Positions 1 through 9,780 of a DNA stretch of 64,000 bases are shown here, piece after piece. Each line of letters opens with the position of its first letter. Positions within the stretch are counted from its first letter, which is position 1. Made by a program: the position numbers and the translations under genes. Below the pieces are notes generated by a model. It saw only the letters and a program-made list of their open reading frames with translations. It was not told the DNA's origin and did not search any database. This DNA is from Bradymonadia bacterium (GTDB taxonomy: Bacteria; Myxococcota_A; Bradymonadia; UBA7976; UBA1532), in contig JBKAGE010000079.1 in assembly GCA_046290225.1 (NCBI GenBank), positions 64,001 to 128,000 on the forward strand, written 5' to 3'.

Positions 1-3000
1 GCCAGCGCAGCCGAGGCGCTGGAGCGCAGGTTCGCACCTCAGCAGGCCCGCTGGCTGCGCCTGCGCGCCGAGACCGAGATCGACGAGGCTGGCCGCCACC
101 TGCTCGCCGTGGGTGACTTCGAGGCCCTCGCCGCCGACAACGGCAGCGCCTCGGTGCAGCTGACCTGGACCGTCCCCAGCGACAAGGGCCCCACGGGGCG
201 TCCTGCGCGCTACGAGGTGCGCTACGCCGCCTTCCCCCTCACGGCAGAGAACTTCGAGCAGGGGACCGAGGCCGGCGCCGGCGCGCCCAGCCAGCCCGGG
301 GGCCCCGAGGCCCTCGTGGTGAGCGGCTTGAACCCCGAGACCCGCTACCACTTCGCCGTGGTGAGCATCGACGACGCCGGCAACCGCAGCGCCCTGAGCA
401 ACAGCGCCGAGGCCGAGACCCCTGGGGTGGCCCCTGGCACCGTGCTCGATCTGCGAGGCACGGAGCTGGAGCAGGATCGCCTCGTGCTGACCTGGACCGC
501 CCCTGGCGCCGACGGCGACGCTGGCGGCTCCGCGGATCGCTACGACATCCGTATGAGCGCTGCGCCCATCACCGTGGACAACTTCGAGCAGGCGGCCATC
601 GTCGAGGGCGCCGGCGGCCCCGCTGTGCCCGGTGAGGTGGAGCGCCTGCCGGTGGCGGGCCTCGAGCCCGGTACGGACTACTACTTCGCCCTGCGGGCCT
701 ACGACGGCGACGAGGCCAGCGCCCTGTCGAACGTGGCTCAGGTGCGGACCCTGGAGCCCCCGGAGCAGGTGCCCCCGGCCACAGTGCAGGACCTCGCCGC
801 CACCACCGACGAGCGGGTTGCTGGCGCCGTTGCCGTGACCTGGACCGCCCCAGGCGACGACGGCAACCTCGGCCAGGCCACCCGCTACGACCTGCGGTGG
901 TCTGCGTCGCCCATCAACGACGGCAACTTCGCCTCCGCGACGTCCGTGCAGGGTCTCGATGCCCCTCAGGCTGCTGGGGCCCAGGAGTCCACCATCGTCA
1001 CTGGTCTGCCGGGAGAGAGCGCGGTGTGGTTCGCCCTCGTGACCTACGACGACGTGGGCAACATGAGCGGCCTGTCGAACATCGCCGAGGCGGCCACTCG
1101 GGCTGAGCCCCCGGCGCAGATCGTCGATCTCGCCGCCGAGGTCCGTGGGGCCGAAGGGGTGCTGACCTGGACCGCCCCTGGCGCTGATGGCGAAGAGGGT
1201 CGGGCCGCGGCCTACCAGCTCTACATCGAGACTGCCCAGTTCGACAGCGTCGAGGGTCTCACCCCTGTGGCCGACGCCCCGGCGCCCGCTGAGGCAGGCA
1301 GCGCCGAGCAATATGTCGCCGCGCTGAGCAACGACACCACCTACTACGCCGCCATCCGCGCCATCGACCCCCAGGGCAACCCCGGGCAGCTGTCGCCGGT
1401 GGTGGGCTTCCAGACTGACGATGGCGTGGCCCCTGGCCGCCCGGTGCAGCTCGTGGCCCGGACCGGCGACGCCGCCGGTACCCTGAGCGTCTCCTTCGGC
1501 GCCCCCGGTGACGACGGCTACGACGGCACCCCCGCCCAGTACGAGGTGCGCTGGTCCACCAGCGCCTTCGACGCCGCGGGCTTCGAGCAGGCCAACCTCT
1601 ATGTGGGTGACCTCGCCGTGGGCGTCGGTGGCAGCGAGCACACTCTTACCCTCTCGGGCCTGCCCGGTGAGCAACGCATCTACGTGGCGCTGCGGGCCAC
1701 CGACGACGCCGGCCTCGTGGGCGACATCTCTGATGTGGCCAGCGCCGAGACCCCCGATGTGGCCCCGAGCCAGATCGCCGACCTCACCGCAGAGTCGGTG
1801 GGCGACGGCGGCATCGCCCTGCGCTGGACCGCCCCCGGCGACGATGGCGCCGAGGGCACCGCCGTGGCCTACGAGGGCCGCATGGGCACCGAGCCCGTCA
1901 CCGAAGACAACTTCGACCAGATGCAGCCGATCCCCAACCTCGGCGCCCCCGCTCAGGGCGGCGCCGCGGAGTCCCTCGCTGTAGAGGGCCTCGCCGGCAA
2001 CACCACCTACCACTTCGCCCTGCGAGCCATCGACGAGCGGGGCAACCGCGGCGCGCTCTCCGCGAGCGCCTCGGCGAGCACCCCCGATCAGGCGGGCCCG
2101 GCCCCTGTGGCCGACCTGCAGGCGCAGACCGGCAACAACGCCGGTGAGGTGATCCTCACGTGGACCGCCGCCGGTGACGACGGCATGGAGGGCACGGCCT
2201 CCTCGGTGGAGATCCGCTACGCCGGAGACGCCTGGCCCGGGTTCGAGCAGGCTGCTGTGGCCCAGGCCGCGGTGACGCCCGTCGCCGGTGGCGAGCGCCA
2301 CGAGGTGACTGTGACTGGCTTGCCCAGCGAGTCCGACCTGACCTTCGCCCTGGTGACCGTCGACGAGGGCGGCAACCGCGCGGCGCCCTCGAACGTCGCC
2401 GCAGCTCAGACCCTCGGCGTGGCCCCTGGCGCACCGAGCGACCTCATCGTCGCCGCCGAGGGCGCCGCGGCCCTGCGCCTGCAGTTCACCGCCCCCGCTG
2501 ATGATGGCGACGACGCCGAGAGCGGCGCCGTGGCCGCCCTGGAGATCGCTTACAGCACCGAGCCCTTTGACGGCGCCGACTTCGACCAGCAGCAGCGCGT
2601 CGCCGGCCCCGCCCCCGAGGCCCCCGGCGCCACGCAGTCGGCGGTCATCGAGGGTCTGCAGAGCAACACCACCTACTATGTGGCGGTCCGCGCCGCCGAC
2701 GAGCGGGCGCAGATCGGCCCCTCCAGCGCTGTGGTGGAGACCCGCACCGGTGACGGTGAGGCCCCCGGCCGCGTGGCGAGCCTGCAGGCCGCGAGCCCTC
2801 AGGGCGGGGGTGAGCCCGTACAGGTGGTGGCCGTGAACGGCAGCGCCTCGCTCTCCGAGGCCTGGCCGGTGTCCCACGCCTTCGACGGCGAGCAGGACAC
2901 GGCGTGGGCGTCTCCCCCTGGCGGTGGCGAGGGCAGCTTCCTCGAGGCCAGCTTCGGTGCCCCCACTCGCATCGGCCGTGTGCGTCTGTACGTCGGGGAG

Positions 3001-4584
3001 TGGGTGGATCGGTTCCCTGCGGACATCGCCCTGAGCGCTGACGGTGAGATCATCGCCGAGGCTGGGGATCTCGCCCCTGACGCCCACAGCTGGGTGGAGC
3101 TCTCCTTCGAGCCCGTCGCCGCGGAGCAGATTCGCCTCGACATCCTCCGGGCCGGTGGCGACGACGACCTGGGCTACGCGGTCATCAACGAGATCTCCGT
3201 GATGCCCGCCGACGACGCCCCCGACACCATCTCCCTCACCTGGGTGGCCCCTGGCGACGACGACAACAGCGGTCAGGCCGCGCGCTACGACGTGCGCATG
3301 AGCACCGCCCCCATCACCCCGGAGACCTTCGCCGACGCCACCCCCGTGGACGGCGCCCCGGCCCCTGGCGTCGCCGGCACCCCCCAGCAGATGCAGGTGG
3401 AGGGCCTCGACGAGGAGACCACCTACTTCTTCGCCCTGAGGACCTACGACGAGTCCGACAACGCCAGCGCGCTGTCGAACGTCGCCGAGGCCACCACCAA
3501 CGGTGTGCCCCCGGCCCGGGTGGAGGATCTCGTCGCCGAGGCCGATGGCCCCTACGCCGCGGTGCTCACCTGGACCGCCGTGGGCGCCGATGGCCACGTG
3601 GGCACCGCCGCCCGCTACGACCTGCGCTACCGCCCCTACGATCTGTCCGACGCCACCTGGCACGAGGCCATCCCCGTCGAGGCCCCGGCCCCTGCAGCCT
3701 CTGGCGCACAGGAGACCTTCCGCGTAGATGGTTTGCTCCCCGGCACGCTCTACGCCTTCGCCCTGCGGGTGGAAGATGAGCGGGGCCACGTGTCGCTCAC
3801 CTCTGTGGTGGCCCGGACCCTCACTGGCGACGGCCCCGACGAGGTCGCCCCTGGCCAGATCACTCGCCTGACGGCCCGCGCCGCCGGCGGTGACGGGCTC
3901 CCTCTGGCCCTGGCCTCTGCCGAGGCCTCGGGCTCACAGTTCCCCGACTTCCCTCAGTCCGCCGCCATCGACGGCGATCCCGACACCGCCTGGGCCTCTC
4001 CGGCGAAGGGTGAGGGGGGCGAGGAGGTGCTCACGGTGCAGCTCGCCGAGGTCACCGCCGTCGACGAGGTGAACATCCTGCCCCACGACGACTTCCTCGA
4101 CCTGTTCCCTGAGGACATGCGCATCGAGACGTCTGTGGACGGCGAGGTTTGGGACACCTTGTTCCAGTACAACGGCCCCTCCGGCTCTGGCGGTGTGGTG
4201 TGGATGGGCGAGGCCACCCCGGTACAGCACGTGCGCATCACCGTGCAGCGTCGGTTCCGGGATCCGGCCTTCCTGGCGGTCATCGGCGAGGTGCGCCTCT
4301 TCGAGGCCGGTGTGGGCGGTACCGCGCTGGTGAGCTGGCAGGCCCCCGGTGACGACGACCAGATCGGCACCGCCACCCGCTACGAGATGGCCACCGTGCA
4401 GCCCGGCCAAGAGGCAGCCTGGTTCGAGCCCGAGCTGGCTCCGGCTCCCGCTGGCGCCCCCGAGGCGGTGTTGCTGAGCGGCCTGCCCGCCGGCGACATG
4501 GTCATCATGATCCGCGCCATCGACGAGGCCGGGAACGTTGGCCAGGCAGCGGAAGCCTCGGTGACCATCAACCCGGTGCAGTAA
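1..4584 (+). CDS. Large extracellular protein, 5'-partial: 11 FN3-like repeats plus F5/8 type C (discoidin)-like domains
   Basis: Frame is open from base 1 to TAA at 4584. The motif LTWTAPGDDG...YxxR...YxFAxxxxDxxGN recurs 11 times. Discoidin-like motifs AFDGEQDTAWAS and AIDGDPDTAWAS are present. Confidence 0.85.
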   Translation, partial: ASAAEALERRFAPQQARWLRLRAETEIDEAGRHLLAVGDFEALAADNGSASVQLTWTVPSDKGPTGRPARYEVRYAAFPLTAENFEQGTEAGAGAPSQPGGPEALVVSGLNPETRYHFAVVSIDDAGNRSALSNSAEAETPGVAPGTVLDLRGTELEQDRLVLTWTAPGADGDAGGSADRYDIRMSAAPITVDNFEQAAIVEGAGGPAVPGEVERLPVAGLEPGTDYYFALRAYDGDEASALSNVAQVRTLEPPEQVPPATVQDLAATTDERVAGAVAVTWTAPGDDGNLGQATRYDLRWSASPINDGNFASATSVQGLDAPQAAGAQESTIVTGLPGESAVWFALVTYDDVGNMSGLSNIAEAATRAEPPAQIVDLAAEVRGAEGVLTWTAPGADGEEGRAAAYQLYIETAQFDSVEGLTPVADAPAPAEAGSAEQYVAALSNDTTYYAAIRAIDPQGNPGQLSPVVGFQTDDGVAPGRPVQLVARTGDAAGTLSVSFGAPGDDGYDGTPAQYEVRWSTSAFDAAGFEQANLYVGDLAVGVGGSEHTLTLSGLPGEQRIYVALRATDDAGLVGDISDVASAETPDVAPSQIADLTAESVGDGGIALRWTAPGDDGAEGTAVAYEGRMGTEPVTEDNFDQMQPIPNLGAPAQGGAAESLAVEGLAGNTTYHFALRAIDERGNRGALSASASASTPDQAGPAPVADLQAQTGNNAGEVILTWTAAGDDGMEGTASSVEIRYAGDAWPGFEQAAVAQAAVTPVAGGERHEVTVTGLPSESDLTFALVTVDEGGNRAAPSNVAAAQTLGVAPGAPSDLIVAAEGAAALRLQFTAPADDGDDAESGAVAALEIAYSTEPFDGADFDQQQRVAGPAPEAPGATQSAVIEGLQSNTTYYVAVRAADERAQIGPSSAVVETRTGDGEAPGRVASLQAASPQGGGEPVQVVAVNGSASLSEAWPVSHAFDGEQDTAWASPPGGGEGSFLEASFGAPTRIGRVRLYVGEWVDRFPADIALSADGEIIAEAGDLAPDAHSWVELSFEPVAAEQIRLDILRAGGDDDLGYAVINEISVMPADDAPDTISLTWVAPGDDDNSGQAARYDVRMSTAPITPETFADATPVDGAPAPGVAGTPQQMQVEGLDEETTYFFALRTYDESDNASALSNVAEATTNGVPPARVEDLVAEADGPYAAVLTWTAVGADGHVGTAARYDLRYRPYDLSDATWHEAIPVEAPAPAASGAQETFRVDGLLPGTLYAFALRVEDERGHVSLTSVVARTLTGDGPDEVAPGQITRLTARAAGGDGLPLALASAEASGSQFPDFPQSAAIDGDPDTAWASPAKGEGGEEVLTVQLAEVTAVDEVNILPHDDFLDLFPEDMRIETSVDGEVWDTLFQYNGPSGSGGVVWMGEATPVQHVRITVQRRFRDPAFLAVIGEVRLFEAGVGGTALVSWQAPGDDDQIGTATRYEMATVQPGQEAAWFEPELAPAPAGAPEAVLLSGLPAGDMVIMIRAIDEAGNVGQAAEASVTINPVQ

Positions 4585-6621: not shown

Positions 6622-7974
6622 ATGAGTAACCCGACACGATCGATTTTCGCCACCCTGGATCTGGGCACCACCGGCATCAAAGGGGCGCTCTGGGGCCCTC
6701 GGGGTGGCCTGGTATTGAACGCCCGCACCCCGGCCCCTGTGGTGCAGACCGAAGACACCGGTCGAGCGTGGCAGTCGTGGCATGTCTACGCGCAGAAGAT
6801 CGTAGCGGTCGTGCAAAGCCTGATGAGAGCCAAACCTGCAAACACCTGGGCGGCCCTCGGCATCACCACCCAGCGCGGCACTGTCCTGGGGTTGGACGCA
6901 GATGGCCGACCCTGCACCGAGCTCATCTCGTGGCTCGACGGCTCAGGCGAGGCCGACAGGCTCACCGCCCACGGCGCCCCCGCGAACGCCCGTGTGTCGA
7001 GCTTGATGTCCATCATCGCCGAGTCTCTCGGCCACAGCGCCATCGACACGTCACAGACCTGCCCCCCAGAGGCCCACACCGTCCATCGCCCTCGACCCAC
7101 GATCCATCCACCAGGGCACCTTCTCGAGGCGCACCCGGTCGCCGATGGCCCACTGACCGGAATCCCCAAAGGCCTGCCGGTGATCCTCGCCGGCGGCGAC
7201 AAGCACTGCGAAATGTTGGGGGTGATGCCTGCCCTCGACCCGCAGCAGGCCGCTTTGAGCCTGGGCACGGCGATCAGTCTGGGCTGGTGGGTGCCGCCGG
7301 GTGAGAAGACACACGCTGAGGATGTCCCCGCCTTCGTGACGCCGACCATCTTCGACGGTTGGCAGCAAGTCGAGGTCGGGCTGCCAGGAGGAGGCTCGGC
7401 GTTTCGCTGGCTTCAGGAGGTGCTGCGTTGGTCTCCAGAGACGCCAGGTGCGTGCTTCGATGGACCACCAGAGGTCGACTGGCCAGTGTGCGTGCCCGAC
7501 TTCTGGGGGCGCTTCGGTGTACCCGGCGCCCGAGGTGGCTGGGTGGGGATAGGCCCTGATGTACCACCGGAGCTGCTGGCGTGGTCGTGGATGGAAGGGG
7601 TGCTCTGGACACTGGAGCGTGCTGCTGCGGCCCATCGAGCGGAGCCACTTACGGATGTCTGGTTGTGTGGTGGCGGAGCATCCTGGGCGCCCTGGTCACT
7701 GTGGGGCCCGGCATTGCTCGGCGGCTGTTGGCACCAGATGCAAGGTGACGACGCTGGTTTGATCGGCGTGGCCCGAGTGATGCGGATGGTGTTGGAGACG
7801 GGGGTGGGTGGGGATGGCTTTGCCAAAGCGGCGAGACGCTACAAGGTGATGTCAGGCGCGTCGAGCACGGCGGCTTCGTGGTCTGTGGAGCTGCTTGCCG
7901 AGCGCCGAGGGCGTTTCGAGGCAGCAGTTCAGGCGCTCTCTACAGCCAGCGGGGCGGGCGCATTGAGAGGATAA
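6622..7974 (+). CDS. FGGY-family carbohydrate kinase (divergent)
   Basis: LDLGTTGIK, GITTQRGT, GGDKHC, SLGT and LCGGGA motifs. Start placed at ATG 6622. Confidence 0.8.
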   Translation: MSNPTRSIFATLDLGTTGIKGALWGPRGGLVLNARTPAPVVQTEDTGRAWQSWHVYAQKIVAVVQSLMRAKPANTWAALGITTQRGTVLGLDADGRPCTELISWLDGSGEADRLTAHGAPANARVSSLMSIIAESLGHSAIDTSQTCPPEAHTVHRPRPTIHPPGHLLEAHPVADGPLTGIPKGLPVILAGGDKHCEMLGVMPALDPQQAALSLGTAISLGWWVPPGEKTHAEDVPAFVTPTIFDGWQQVEVGLPGGGSAFRWLQEVLRWSPETPGACFDGPPEVDWPVCVPDFWGRFGVPGARGGWVGIGPDVPPELLAWSWMEGVLWTLERAAAAHRAEPLTDVWLCGGGASWAPWSLWGPALLGGCWHQMQGDDAGLIGVARVMRMVLETGVGGDGFAKAARRYKVMSGASSTAASWSVELLAERRGRFEAAVQALSTASGAGALRG

Positions 7975-8098
7975 ACGCGCCCACCCCGCGACCCACACGG
8001 TCCTACCCCGGCCCCGTGGCTGTGGAGTCATTTGGCCCTGCCCGAGACGCCCGAGCGTGCCGAGCGCCCCGAGCAGGGCGAAGTCTGTGAATCAGTGT

Positions 8099-8173
8099 TG
8101 GAGCCGTGAGAGGGACTCGAACCCCCGCCTTCTCATTACGAAAGAGATATTCTCCCCGTTAAACCATCACGAC
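8099..8173 (-). tRNA. tRNA-Thr(CGU), atypical
   Basis: Cloverleaf GTCGTGA-TG-GTTT..GAAT-A-TCTCT TTCGTAA TGAGA-AGGC-GGGGG TTCGAGT CCCTC-TCACGGC-T-CCA. U31:U39 mismatch, U2:G71 pair, CCA encoded. Confidence 0.85.
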
Positions 8174-8186
8174 GGCACTGATGTTG

Positions 8187-8258
8187 AGCTGCGAGGGGGA
8201 GTCGAACCCGCGTCTCCTCCCTACCATGGAGGCGTTCTGGCCGTTGAACTACCGCAGC
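8187..8258 (-). tRNA. tRNA-Thr(GGU), atypical
   Basis: GCTGCGG..CCTCC ATGGTAG GGAGG-AGAC-GCGGG TTCGACT CCCCC-TCGCAGC-T. A32/G38 loop, C:C mismatch in the T-stem, no encoded CCA. Confidence 0.8.
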
Positions 8259-8293
8259 GCTCAGTATCTTGTTCTCAAAAGCAAAATGTGTAG

Positions 8294-8365
8294 AGCCGCG
8301 AGGGGGAATCGAACCCCCATCTCATCGTTGGCAACGATGCGTCCTAGCCGTTGAACGACCGCGGC
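8294..8365 (-). tRNA. tRNA-Gly(GCC), atypical acceptor stem
   Basis: GCCGCGG..CATCG TTGCCAA CGATG-AGAT-GGGGG TTCGATT CCCCC-TCGCGGC-T. U73, C3:G70, no encoded CCA. Confidence 0.85.
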
Positions 8366-8372
8366 GAATTGT

Positions 8373-8446
8373 TGGAGCCGTGAGAGGGAATCGAACCCCC
8401 ACCCCCTCAGTACAAAAGAGGGATTCTGCCATTGAACCATCACGGC
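8373..8446 (-). tRNA. tRNA-Thr(UGU), atypical
   Basis: GCCGTGA..CCTCT TTTGTAC TGAGG-GGGT-GGGGG TTCGATT CCCTC-TCACGGC-T-CCA. U31:U39 mismatch, C38. Confidence 0.85.
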
Positions 8447-8485
8447 GCTCAGGTACGCGTCATTTGGACATCAAACTCTGTGTAG

Positions 8486-8557
8486 AGCCGCTGGGGGGAA
8501 TCGAACCCCCATCTTCTCCTTGGAAGGGAGCCATTCTGGCCATTGAACTACAGCGGC
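8486..8557 (-). tRNA. tRNA-Gly(UCC), atypical acceptor stem
   Basis: GCCGCTG..GCTCC CTTCCAA GGAGA-AGAT-GGGGG TTCGATT CCCCC-CAGCGGC-T. G27:A43 mismatch, C3:G70, no encoded CCA. Confidence 0.85.
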
Positions 8558-8558
8558 A

Positions 8559-9055
8559 TCCGGCCCTGCGGCGGCGATAGCCGCCGTGAGGCCTCCCTGC
8601 GTTTCTCCCGTTGCGACCGTGAGGCTGATCGGGGGACGGATCGAAAGGGCGATCTCGCCGATCAGCCTTTGGCCGCATCGGATACAGGGGCCACGGTGAA
8701 GTGGCGGATGTCCAACGACAGGCAGACCTGTCGTACGATCATCGAAACATGGCATTCTCCTCGCCCCCTCGGGGCTGAGTTGCACGTGTTGTGGTGGAGC
8801 TGGCCGGAGTCGAACCGGCAACCTTCTGCGAGCCATGCAGGTGCTCTCCCAGTTAAGCTACAGCCCCACAAATATTTGGTGTTTCAGTCGTTCAGTCTTG
8901 GCCCGAAAGGGGTGCCCGACGCTGTGTCGAGGCGCCCCGATAACTTGTCCGTCTATGCCCGAGACAATCCCGCATCCCCCTCTCACCTGATCCCAGTCGA
9001 GATCGGAAATGGCGAAGGGAGTCCCCACGGCGGCTGGCGCCGCCGCAGGGGCGGA
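8559..9055. repeat. 43-bp imperfect inverted repeat (8559-8601 / 9013-9055) inside the tRNA array
   Basis: 8559-8601 matches the reverse complement of 9013-9055 at 37/43 positions by manual alignment. Each copy contains a GCGGCGGC-N4-GCCGCCGT hairpin. Confidence 0.8.
8792..8867 (-). tRNA. tRNA-Ala(GGC), atypical anticodon loop
   Basis: GGGGCTG..CCTGC ATGGCTC GCAGA-AGGTT-GCCGG TTCGACT CCGGC-CAGCTCC-A-CCA. G3:U70 Ala identity pair, pyrimidine (U) at position 37, C27:A43 mismatch. Confidence 0.85.
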
Positions 9056-9059
9056 CAAG

Positions 9060-9132
9060 TGGAGCTGGGCGGAATCGAACCGCCAACCTTCCCCGTGCGA
9101 GGGGGGTGCTCTCCCAATTGAGCTACAGCCCC
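9060..9132 (-). tRNA. tRNA-Ala(CGC)
   Basis: GGGGCTG..CCCCC CTCGCAC GGGGA-AGGTT-GGCGG TTCGATT CCGCC-CAGCTCC-A. G3:U70, C27:A43 mismatch, no encoded CCA. Confidence 0.88.
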
Positions 9133-9424: not shown

Positions 9425-9465
9425 AAATGAAAACGCCCGCCTCTCCAAGCCAGGAGGGGCGGGCG
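9425..9465 (-). terminator. Intrinsic terminator (attenuator) upstream of the tRNA array
   Basis: Minus strand CGCCCGCCCCTCC-TGGCTT-GGAGAGGCGGGCG-TTTTCATTT: 13-bp stem with one mismatch followed by a U-rich tract. Confidence 0.85.
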
Positions 9466-9511
9466 CCGCGTAGAACCGTGTTGTTGAACGATTCTAGGGC
9501 GTTACCCCTCC
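9453..9511 (-). promoter_or_regulatory. Antiterminator hairpin overlapping the leader stop codon and the terminator 5' arm
   Basis: Minus strand GGAGGGG..CGCC..TAGAATCGT pairs with ACGGTTCTA..GGCG..CCCCTCC, sequestering the 5' arm of the terminator. Confidence 0.75.
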
Positions 9512-9673
9512 GATGAGACCGATACCTTTACCTGCTCTGAGCCATGAGGCTTGAGCGTTTCCGGCATCGCTGGGCCCTTCTACACACAGACCCGCCGTTG
9601 CCTCGAAGGCATCGGTACGACGTGTTGCGCTCAAGGCCGCGACGTCGATGATGTGGGTGGTGTAGAAAAACAC
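9494..9673 (-). CDS. Putative 59-aa leader peptide (uORF) of the tRNA array
   Basis: GGAG Shine-Dalgarno then GTG 9673, open to TAG 9494: MFFYTTHIIDVAALSATRRTDAFEATAGLCVEGPSDAGNAQASWLRAGKGIGLIGGVTP*. Shorter than any ORF in the supplied track. Confidence 0.65.
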   Translation of the reverse strand: MFFYTTHIIDVAALSATRRTDAFEATAGLCVEGPSDAGNAQASWLRAGKGIGLIGGVTP

Positions 9674-9751
9674 AGCAAGGGCTCCAGAGTTGTGACCCGC
9701 CTTGGGGTCATGGGTTCAATGTGTGAGTTGTGTATGTCAGAGACGTGTATG

Positions 9752-9780
9752 TTTCTATGGCTCAGTCATGTGTCGGTCAA
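9752..9780 (-). promoter_or_regulatory. Candidate sigma70-type promoter for the leader/tRNA array
   Basis: Minus strand TTGACC-17 nt-TAGAAA in an AT-richer region about 80 nt upstream of the leader start. Confidence 0.55.

Follow-up and report, generated by a model that had tools for sequence, protein, structure and literature searches.

Why should glycine and threonine tRNAs share one body in a bacterial genome, and what might such genes be for? The question is raised by positions 8099-8557 of the window (the whole 64,000-nucleotide stretch of Bradymonadia DNA analysed here, part of a 281-kb contig of an 8.6-Mb genome), where ARAGORN and Rfam (52-67 bits) place five tRNA genes on the minus strand. 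Read position by position, all five carry U73, a 4-nt variable loop, a GTTY-AAYGG D-arm and a G-rich T-stem, both Gly tRNAs have C3:G70 and Thr(CGU) has U2:G71, just as the initial annotation had described. The array is larger than that annotation gave, since two same-strand Ala tRNAs and an upstream leader region (approximately 9780-9425) belong to it; the order of transcription is Ala(CGC), Ala(GGC), Gly(UCC), Thr(UGU), Gly(GCC), Thr(GGU), Thr(CGU), and all seven tRNAs have a cloverleaf fold.

9059-9132, minus strand: tRNA-Ala(CGC), spare copy (ARAGORN, Rfam)
8792-8867, minus strand: tRNA-Ala(GGC), spare copy (ARAGORN)
8485-8557, minus strand: tRNA-Gly(UCC) with C3:G70, C5:G68, U73 and a 4-nt variable loop, CCA not encoded (ARAGORN, position-by-position reading)
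8447-8484, minus strand: spacer 1 of a duplicated Gly-spacer-Thr unit (spacer alignment)
8373-8446, minus strand: tRNA-Thr(UGU) with U5:A68 and U31.U39, CCA encoded (ARAGORN, position-by-position reading)
8293-8365, minus strand: tRNA-Gly(GCC) with C3:G70 and C5:G68, CCA not encoded (ARAGORN, position-by-position reading)
8259-8292, minus strand: spacer 2, homologous to spacer 1 (spacer alignment)
8186-8258, minus strand: tRNA-Thr(GGU) with A32/G38 and a C50.C64 mismatch, nearest to both Gly genes (ARAGORN, Rfam)
8099-8173, minus strand: tRNA-Thr(CGU) with U2.G71, likely a duplicate of Thr(UGU) (ARAGORN, position-by-position reading)

The array is flanked by metabolic genes (FGGY-type kinase, acyltransferase-like, MTAP-like and NupC-like, all below family cut-offs), and no phage genes were seen beside it. 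A sub-cut-off hit to the MYXO-CTERM family and a tmRNA tag of myxobacterial type suggest that the organism is probably related to the myxobacteria. A REP-like pair of 43-nt inverted repeats (8559-8601 and 9013-9055), with further copies on at least six other contigs, surrounds Ala(GGC), and by eye a GC-rich hairpin (7949-7989) separates the array's end from the convergent kinase gene. Elsewhere in the window, positions 109-4584 encode a 1491-aa protein with fibronectin-like repeats and discoidin-type domains, probably surface-exposed.

The initial annotation had called the shared body chimeric and had named, as one result that would count against it, housekeeping Gly and Thr tRNAs with the same features. 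The housekeeping tRNAs share U73 with the array but differ in loop and 3:70 pair: housekeeping Gly has G3:C70 and a 5-nt loop, housekeeping Thr a 5-nt loop, and U73 is present in 3/3 of each, so that U73 is not diagnostic of the spare body. In pattern searches, Gly with C3:G70 and U73 occurred in none of 30 genomes of the order and none of 400 of the phylum, two other genomes of the class that lay outside these samples (G421 and G424) carrying a C3:G70 Gly(GCC); Thr with the D-arm and 4-nt loop of the array was likewise found in 0/400 phylum genomes. Yet each of the two patterns matches at least 120 viral stretches, and the Thr pattern also matches 61 GTDB contigs, some with arrays and others with a solitary Thr(CGU) gene in Patescibacteria. 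The body is thus odd among relatives, and "chimeric" overstates its oddity because phages and tRNA arrays commonly carry either type. The lone Patescibacteria gene (L263-L322) is a conserved Thr(CGU) with a Gly-like D-arm and a 4-nt loop, present in many Saccharibacteria and Parcubacteria genomes. Among 213 external Thr tRNAs, the U31.U39 pair of two array Thr genes recurs in 35 and the U2.G71 of Thr(CGU) in none. A DNA search of 40 relatives returned no orthologous Gly/Thr array, matching only housekeeping-type tRNAs and short repeats, and pattern searches of metagenomes gave 0 and 2 matches, the 2 being unrelated. The corresponding search for an Asp/Glu array gave 0/400 phylum genomes (two candidates scored per genome, with G023, a relative discussed below, outside the sample) and no viral stretch; T-loop counts are a poor guide to spare sets, G218 having 51 tRNAs and G023 57.

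With the anticodon left out, the Gly and Thr genes of the array are 0.70-0.80 identical over 64 positions (mean 0.75, six pairs), against 0.63 ± 0.06 (maximum 0.81) for body-matched external pairs (20 x 151 genes) and 0.64 for housekeeping pairs. Three of the six pairs lie in the top 1.3% of external pairs and the other three at 5-13%, and no other cross-isotype pair of the four main spare arrays reaches the Gly-Thr mean. The two Gly-to-Thr spacers align as none of 5000 shuffles did, and their homology means that the Gly-spacer-Thr unit was duplicated. Thr(CGU) is 0.86 identical to Thr(UGU) and likely a copy of it, and Thr(GGU) is closest to the two Gly genes (0.80). The duplicated unit and the raised Gly-Thr identity suggest, at the level of sequence, that the Gly and Thr genes share ancestry. 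Where duplication with anticodon shifts had been proposed, the duplication is borne out by the spacers and the Thr pair; a shift of anticodon is plausible, and gene conversion fits equally well. The anticodon arm is left free by both search patterns, and a profile built on it sorts 122/150 Gly and 175/213 Thr correctly; it reads the three array Thr as Thr-like (-3.9 to -6.5) and the two array Gly as neutral (-1.4, -0.8), and scores housekeeping Gly at +8.0, +6.3 and -0.7, the last, neutral value being that of Gly(GCC). If an anticodon switch did occur, Thr to Gly would be the slightly likelier direction. In a phylogeny, which had been suggested as a check, the five do not group together when the topology is unconstrained; an AU test does not reject their monophyly (0.19) and does reject a clean Gly/Thr split (0.005). 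This tree of 38 tRNAs and 64 positions is weak and does not settle direction, being built by a fast search with few replicates and neighbours picked by likeness.

In two relatives, nine tRNAs (L363 on contig C781 of G421; L390/L391 on contig C65 of G424) with Cys, Arg, Ser, Glu, Met and Trp anticodons and U73 have one GCCGC/GTCGC-type body, 0.61-0.86 identical, the Ser tRNA having no long arm. To judge by these features, the set reads as a stronger case of anticodon switching than the studied window; no leader was found at these arrays.

As given in the accessible part of PMC9976931, bacterial Gly identity lies in U73, G1-C72, C2-G71, G3-C70, C35 and C36, and Thr identity in G1-C72, C2-G71, G4-C69, G5-C68 and the anticodon, positions 35-36 being read by both GlyRS and ThrRS; of the acceptor pairs, emphasis falls on the third in yeast and archaea, but on the first in E. 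coli and Thermus. The acceptor determinants of the two overlap and the anticodon decides, so that a common body is cheap and acceptor sequence cannot separate the two identities. G1:C72, C2:G71, U73 and the cognate anticodon are kept in four of the five array tRNAs. C70 is contacted by the tetrameric GlyRS (PMC9908026), the alpha chain of which is absent from this genome; the four PF00587 hits are SerRS, ThrRS, ProRS and dimeric GlyRS. There is a single GlyRS and a single ThrRS, both on contigs other than that of the array, and no paralogous synthetase was found beside the array or in the genome. The array tRNAs are thus very probably charged cognately for the most part, although they may be charged less well owing to C3:G70, U2.G71 and the flipped 5:68 pair. 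The use as mischarged tRNAs or decoys envisaged by the initial annotation loses ground here, in view of the retained Gly/Thr determinants and cognate anticodons and of a leader in which the amino acids specified by these anticodons are enriched; mischarging appears unlikely.

Evasion of toxins by the array tRNAs is possible. For FaRel2, the pairs G1-C72, C2-G71, G4-C69 and Pu5-Py68 matter and 3:70 does not (bioRxiv 2024.07.05.602228, accessible part), and C3:G70 was accordingly rejected as a FaRel2-escape change. Py5:Pu68, which occurs in 5/5 array and 0/6 housekeeping Gly/Thr tRNAs and would remove one FaRel2 determinant, appears to be the better candidate, bearing in mind that it is also present in 73/102 viral Gly and 78/121 viral Thr tRNAs and that the five array genes are kin. 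No position-level rule for GNAT toxins was found in the accessible part of PMC9177977. That escape from toxins or nucleases is the purpose of the spare tRNAs is conceivable, though we consider it somewhat doubtful.

The array is one piece of a larger set. ARAGORN gives 96 tRNA calls in this genome (G000), five of which (on C13, C34:37879, C37:220911 and two on C75) were discarded as spurious because of poor folds. The housekeeping set has 46 parsed genes with 42 anticodons, and beyond this full set there is a second, divergent one that covers 19 amino acids in sub-arrays of 1-10 genes, grouped by amino acid and spread over several contigs: Arg/Lys/Val/Ile on C20 and C24, Leu/Ser/Tyr on C37, Asp/Glu/Phe/Gln as well as Cys and Pro on C42, a further Pro on C34, Asn/His on C44, Trp on C77, and Ala/Gly/Thr at the studied locus (window 8099-9132, minus strand). 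Spare Arg(GCG) (C20, 480-555 and 559-633) has an anticodon missing from the housekeeping set, and the array that bears it also holds the sole assembled Ile(GAU) of the genome; no Ala(UGC) is assembled among the ARAGORN calls. On C14 (27995-28067, minus strand) there is a CUA-anticodon tRNA, called Pyl by ARAGORN and possibly an amber suppressor, and inside the Leu/Ser/Tyr array (C37:77832, minus strand) a Tyr-type long-arm tRNA with an enlarged anticodon loop that ARAGORN labels Thr(UGU). On C34, three tRNA-like RNAs (L329:1133-1587; Rfam tRNA 47-53 bits, missed by ARAGORN) have in common an insertion of roughly 35 nt within the anticodon arm and stand directly before two spare Pro tRNAs, between which lies a fourth similar insert-bearing element.

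Upstream of the seven tRNA genes we found the parts of a candidate transcription attenuator:

9752-9780, minus strand: candidate sigma-70-type promoter (-35 TTGACC, 17 nt, -10 TAGAAA), read from the sequence and not listed by a consensus scan
9494-9673, minus strand: 59-codon leader ORF with GTG start and GGAG 8 nt upstream (sequence, RNA contigs)
9505-9511, minus strand: G-rich segment within the final codons of the leader, a predicted antiterminator that would pair with the 5' arm of the terminator at 9459-9453 (co-transcriptional folding)
9471-9496, minus strand: inner hairpin beginning at the leader stop codon (folding)
9425-9467, minus strand: intrinsic terminator, a -28.8 kcal/mol hairpin with a U-rich tail, 27 nt past the leader stop (folding)

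The terminator (9467-9425) stands 292 nt ahead of Ala(CGC). Ala, Thr and Gly account for 24 of the 58 leader codons, 15 being expected (fraction 0.26; p = 0.009), with synonymous codons mixed and a GC3 of 0.59 versus 0.80. This enrichment is the weakest among the multi-residue leaders of the genome, Ala, Gly and Thr being common residues, and the leader's own amino-acid set ranks second of 12, behind a superset. In transcripts cut in the terminator loop, the 5' arm of the terminator is predicted to join a long helix with the end of the ORF when the ribosome is at least 9-12 codons upstream (for the Cys leader described below, at 9-12 codons only); the lack of pairing with the ribosome at the stop is true by construction, and the test lacks specificity, since in the whole genome 14 of the 34 combinations of short ORF and terminator pass it. 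RNA contigs from two metatranscriptome studies cover the leader only (9508-9727 and 9511-9727); both end at 9727, DNA contigs extending past it to 9770 and 9862, and their lower ends coincide with the base of the predicted antiterminator. Being of low depth, from related strains, possibly DNA and drawn from four of six listed runs, with neither ends nor strand, these contigs give a weak hint that the leader is transcribed; missing cover over the tRNAs does not mean silence, mature tRNA often being lost from such libraries. Nine variants fall in the leader ORF, four silent and five missense (two toward Ala or Gly, one away from Gly), with no stop or frameshift among them, and in one run (X1) a variant at 9476 turns a U.G pair of the inner hairpin into U-A.

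Similar leaders recur at other spare arrays. Ten of the 50 tRNA clusters of the genome have a short ORF and a terminator upstream; five of these, at spare arrays, match their own tRNAs, and by inspection the other five do not. Besides the studied case, codons for the array's own tRNAs make up 20/34 of the Arg/Lys/Val/Ile leader, 20/34 of the Leu/Ser/Tyr leader, 17/31 of the Asp/Glu/Phe/Gln leader and 2/25 of the Trp leader; a sixth leader, ahead of spare Cys, was found by eye. When the six leaders are set against their arrays, the true pairing is the best of 720 permutations. A leader is present at 6 of 13 spare loci here and at a minority of loci in relatives, none being seen at the remaining seven, one of which starts 179 nt from a contig end. 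In a blind genome-wide scan, 755 terminators were reduced to 34 with a short SD-led ORF and 14 with a predicted antiterminator, at 11 places: five spare tRNA arrays, one divergent EF-Tu, one DRB0094-family RNA ligase and four unexplained. A stricter scan with a promoter filter kept two loci.

We then surveyed the tRNA clusters of four genomes of the class, picked for array hits or high T-loop counts, and obtained nine further leaders, 15 in all from five genomes and three families: three at two arrays among 21 regions in G421 (L332, and a tandem pair at L362 with 40/53 and 52/70), and two each in G424 (20 regions), G023 (8 regions) and G218 (5 regions). Two of the nine are weak alone (p 0.07). 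The stop-to-terminator spacing is 20-28 nt in 6/6 leaders here and 15-33 nt in 9/9 elsewhere, each with a predicted antiterminator. Scored against 12 amino-acid sets, 13 of the 15 leaders fit that of their own array best, and 0/100,000 permutations reach the observed score, a value that overstates the case because several leaders, or their starts or frames, were picked by eye and homologous arrays are not independent. Leaders follow array content across genomes, an Asn/Cys/Gly/Phe/Ala/Thr array, for instance, having an N/C/G/F/A/T leader. Of two homologous leaders identical at 79/99 nt, that of G023 has seven Arg codons and that of this genome one; the G023 array includes Arg(GCG) and Arg(CCG), which can read all seven codons (CGC, CGT or CGG), and the counterpart here has no Arg tRNA. 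A matched leader at p < 0.05 was found in 0/22 housekeeping clusters of the relatives. A scan of 227 external clusters gave four leaders at p < 0.02, of which we accepted one (L332). Candidates at L363, L365 and L397 (p 3e-4 to 3e-3) were dropped, having no clear ribosome-binding site or lying inside coding sequence. At L365 (contig C35 of G421) a terminator and a 47-codon ORF precede two Arg(GCG) genes, but the ORF is not rich in Arg codons, a mismatch of leader and array.

Taken together, the parts, the composition match, the recurrence and the covariation argue strongly for ribosome-mediated attenuation at this array, with leader translation, switch and trigger as its conjectural steps. The locus as a whole is probably the Ala/Gly/Thr module of a spare tRNA set, controlled in this way and cognately charged. 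RNA polymerase would transcribe the short leader while a ribosome translates it. With working Ala, Gly and Thr tRNAs, the ribosome would reach the stop and cover the G-rich segment, the terminator would form and leader RNA alone would be made; a stall at Ala, Gly or Thr codons, their tRNA being cleaved, blocked, uncharged or scarce, would let the G-rich segment capture the terminator arm, so that the seven tRNA genes are transcribed. An extra tRNA would be of little help in amino-acid starvation, which makes loss or blocking of tRNA the likelier trigger. The single dimeric GlyRS and single ThrRS would charge the products by anticodon, and the shared phage-type body, presumably derived by tandem duplication with anticodon change or gene conversion, would be tolerated because the Gly and Thr acceptor determinants overlap.

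The same switch might sense translation stress in general, such as ribosome-targeting antibiotics or slow elongation, with en bloc induction as in the Anabaena trn operon and a composition match that is secondary or historical. Any stall at least nine codons before the stop opens it in the folding model, the same architecture stands ahead of the divergent EF-Tu and the RNA ligase gene, and ribosome antibiotics induce the Anabaena array (PMC8421152). A general sensor needs no match between leader and array, yet leaders match their own arrays and Arg codons track Arg tRNAs; we regard it as unlikely, although both readings can hold together. A decaying, horizontally acquired array with no regulated function, its leader and hairpins being due to chance, would accord with the patchy distribution (C3:G70 Gly and 4-nt-loop Thr each in 0/400 phylum genomes), the mismatches in the Thr genes and the modest p of this single leader. 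We consider it highly improbable, since the architecture recurs at 15 leaders in five genomes with matching composition and spacing, the variants keep the leader frame, and all seven tRNAs fold as cloverleaves.

Recent anticodon switches could also have produced tRNAs charged by the other synthetase, with Gly/Thr mistranslation, or uncharged decoys for acceptor-stem toxins. The raised Gly-Thr identity would agree with this, as would the precedent of Streptomyces tRNA-ProX (PMC10404621) and the relatives' single body with Cys, Arg, Ser, Glu, Met and Trp anticodons. Both Gly anticodon arms are neutral to slightly Thr-like (-1.4, -0.8), but so is housekeeping Gly(GCC) (-0.7); Gly(GCC) of the array resembles one external Thr (0.84) more closely than it does any Gly from outside (0.72), but the external Thr tRNAs had been chosen for having this body, so that the likeness is inflated. 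Positions 35-36 are read by both synthetases (PMC9976931), there is no paralogous synthetase beside the array or found in the genome, and Thr with this body is a lone Thr(CGU) gene in many Patescibacteria contigs, all of which makes such charging very unlikely. We therefore retain attenuation of a cognately charged spare module as the preferred reading.

Multivalent leader-peptide attenuators besides trpL include thrL, ilvL and pheM. In classical trpL attenuation, stalling opens the terminator (PMC4007540), and the present loci share with trpL-type attenuators an SD-led short ORF rich in the sensed amino acids, a G-rich antiterminator near its end and an intrinsic terminator about 25 nt past the stop, here known from sequence and folding. 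They differ in that the controlled genes are tRNAs for the sensed codons rather than biosynthesis or synthetase genes, and in that each module of a divided spare tRNA set has a separate leader, with synonymous codons mixed. Like the L-arrays and the Anabaena PCC 7120 trn operon (PMC8421152; TrcR, PMC10272220), the set consists of supernumerary divergent isodecoders beyond a full housekeeping set, patchy in relatives; as in Anabaena, it is plausibly silent until translation is impaired, with RNA repair genes in the same genome (three RtcB hits, besides four RelA/SpoT-domain hits). Unlike L-arrays, it is not one long, rarely periodic array, but a dispersed set grouped by amino acid, here seven genes with tandem duplication. 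The trn operon is controlled by a DNA-binding repressor, TrcR, whereas control here appears to be attenuation; the words "attenuat" and "leader" have no occurrence in the accessible text of PMC10272220. The Streptomyces tRNA-ProX/ProRSx pair (PMC10404621) likewise offers an accessory tRNA with a non-standard pairing of anticodon and body, but there a synthetase isoform is encoded alongside and mistranslation has been demonstrated, whereas this genome has no such paralogue and the determinants agree with the anticodon.

Phage-encoded tRNAs reportedly evade tRNA-targeting defences. The array shares the body types of phage Gly and Thr tRNAs, with a pyrimidine at 5:68 in 5/5; unlike phage tRNAs, it is chromosomal and flanked by metabolic genes, and any escape is putative. 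A full-text literature search, with most subscription journals and supplements outside its scope, returned no published account of leader-peptide attenuation of tRNA genes. The array is best read as a case of a known control, attenuation, applied to spare tRNA genes.

Little is settled about how single tRNA genes are regulated in bacteria (PMC8421152). A leader spelling out the codons read by the downstream tRNAs would feed decoding speed straight back into tRNA supply, and, where matched, would give a sequence-only readout of the amino acid that an odd tRNA is expected to serve; its design suggests that these bacteria are under pressure from tRNA damage and bears on the role of supernumerary tRNAs. 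More tentatively, a near-complete spare set in amino-acid modules, each gated by a leader reading exactly those codons, could form a codon-specific rescue circuit. If so, whenever a toxin or nuclease removed one class of tRNA, altered and resistant substitutes would be called up for this class and no other; a spare EF-Tu and an RNA ligase would be under switches of a similar kind. The divergent EF-Tu (C57, at about 44459; L422:3015-4238, minus strand) lies behind a Leu/Ser-rich leader, a terminator and a predicted antiterminator, and the DRB0094-family RNA ligase (C34, at about 31141; L423:2405-3496, minus strand) behind a similar short ORF and terminator.
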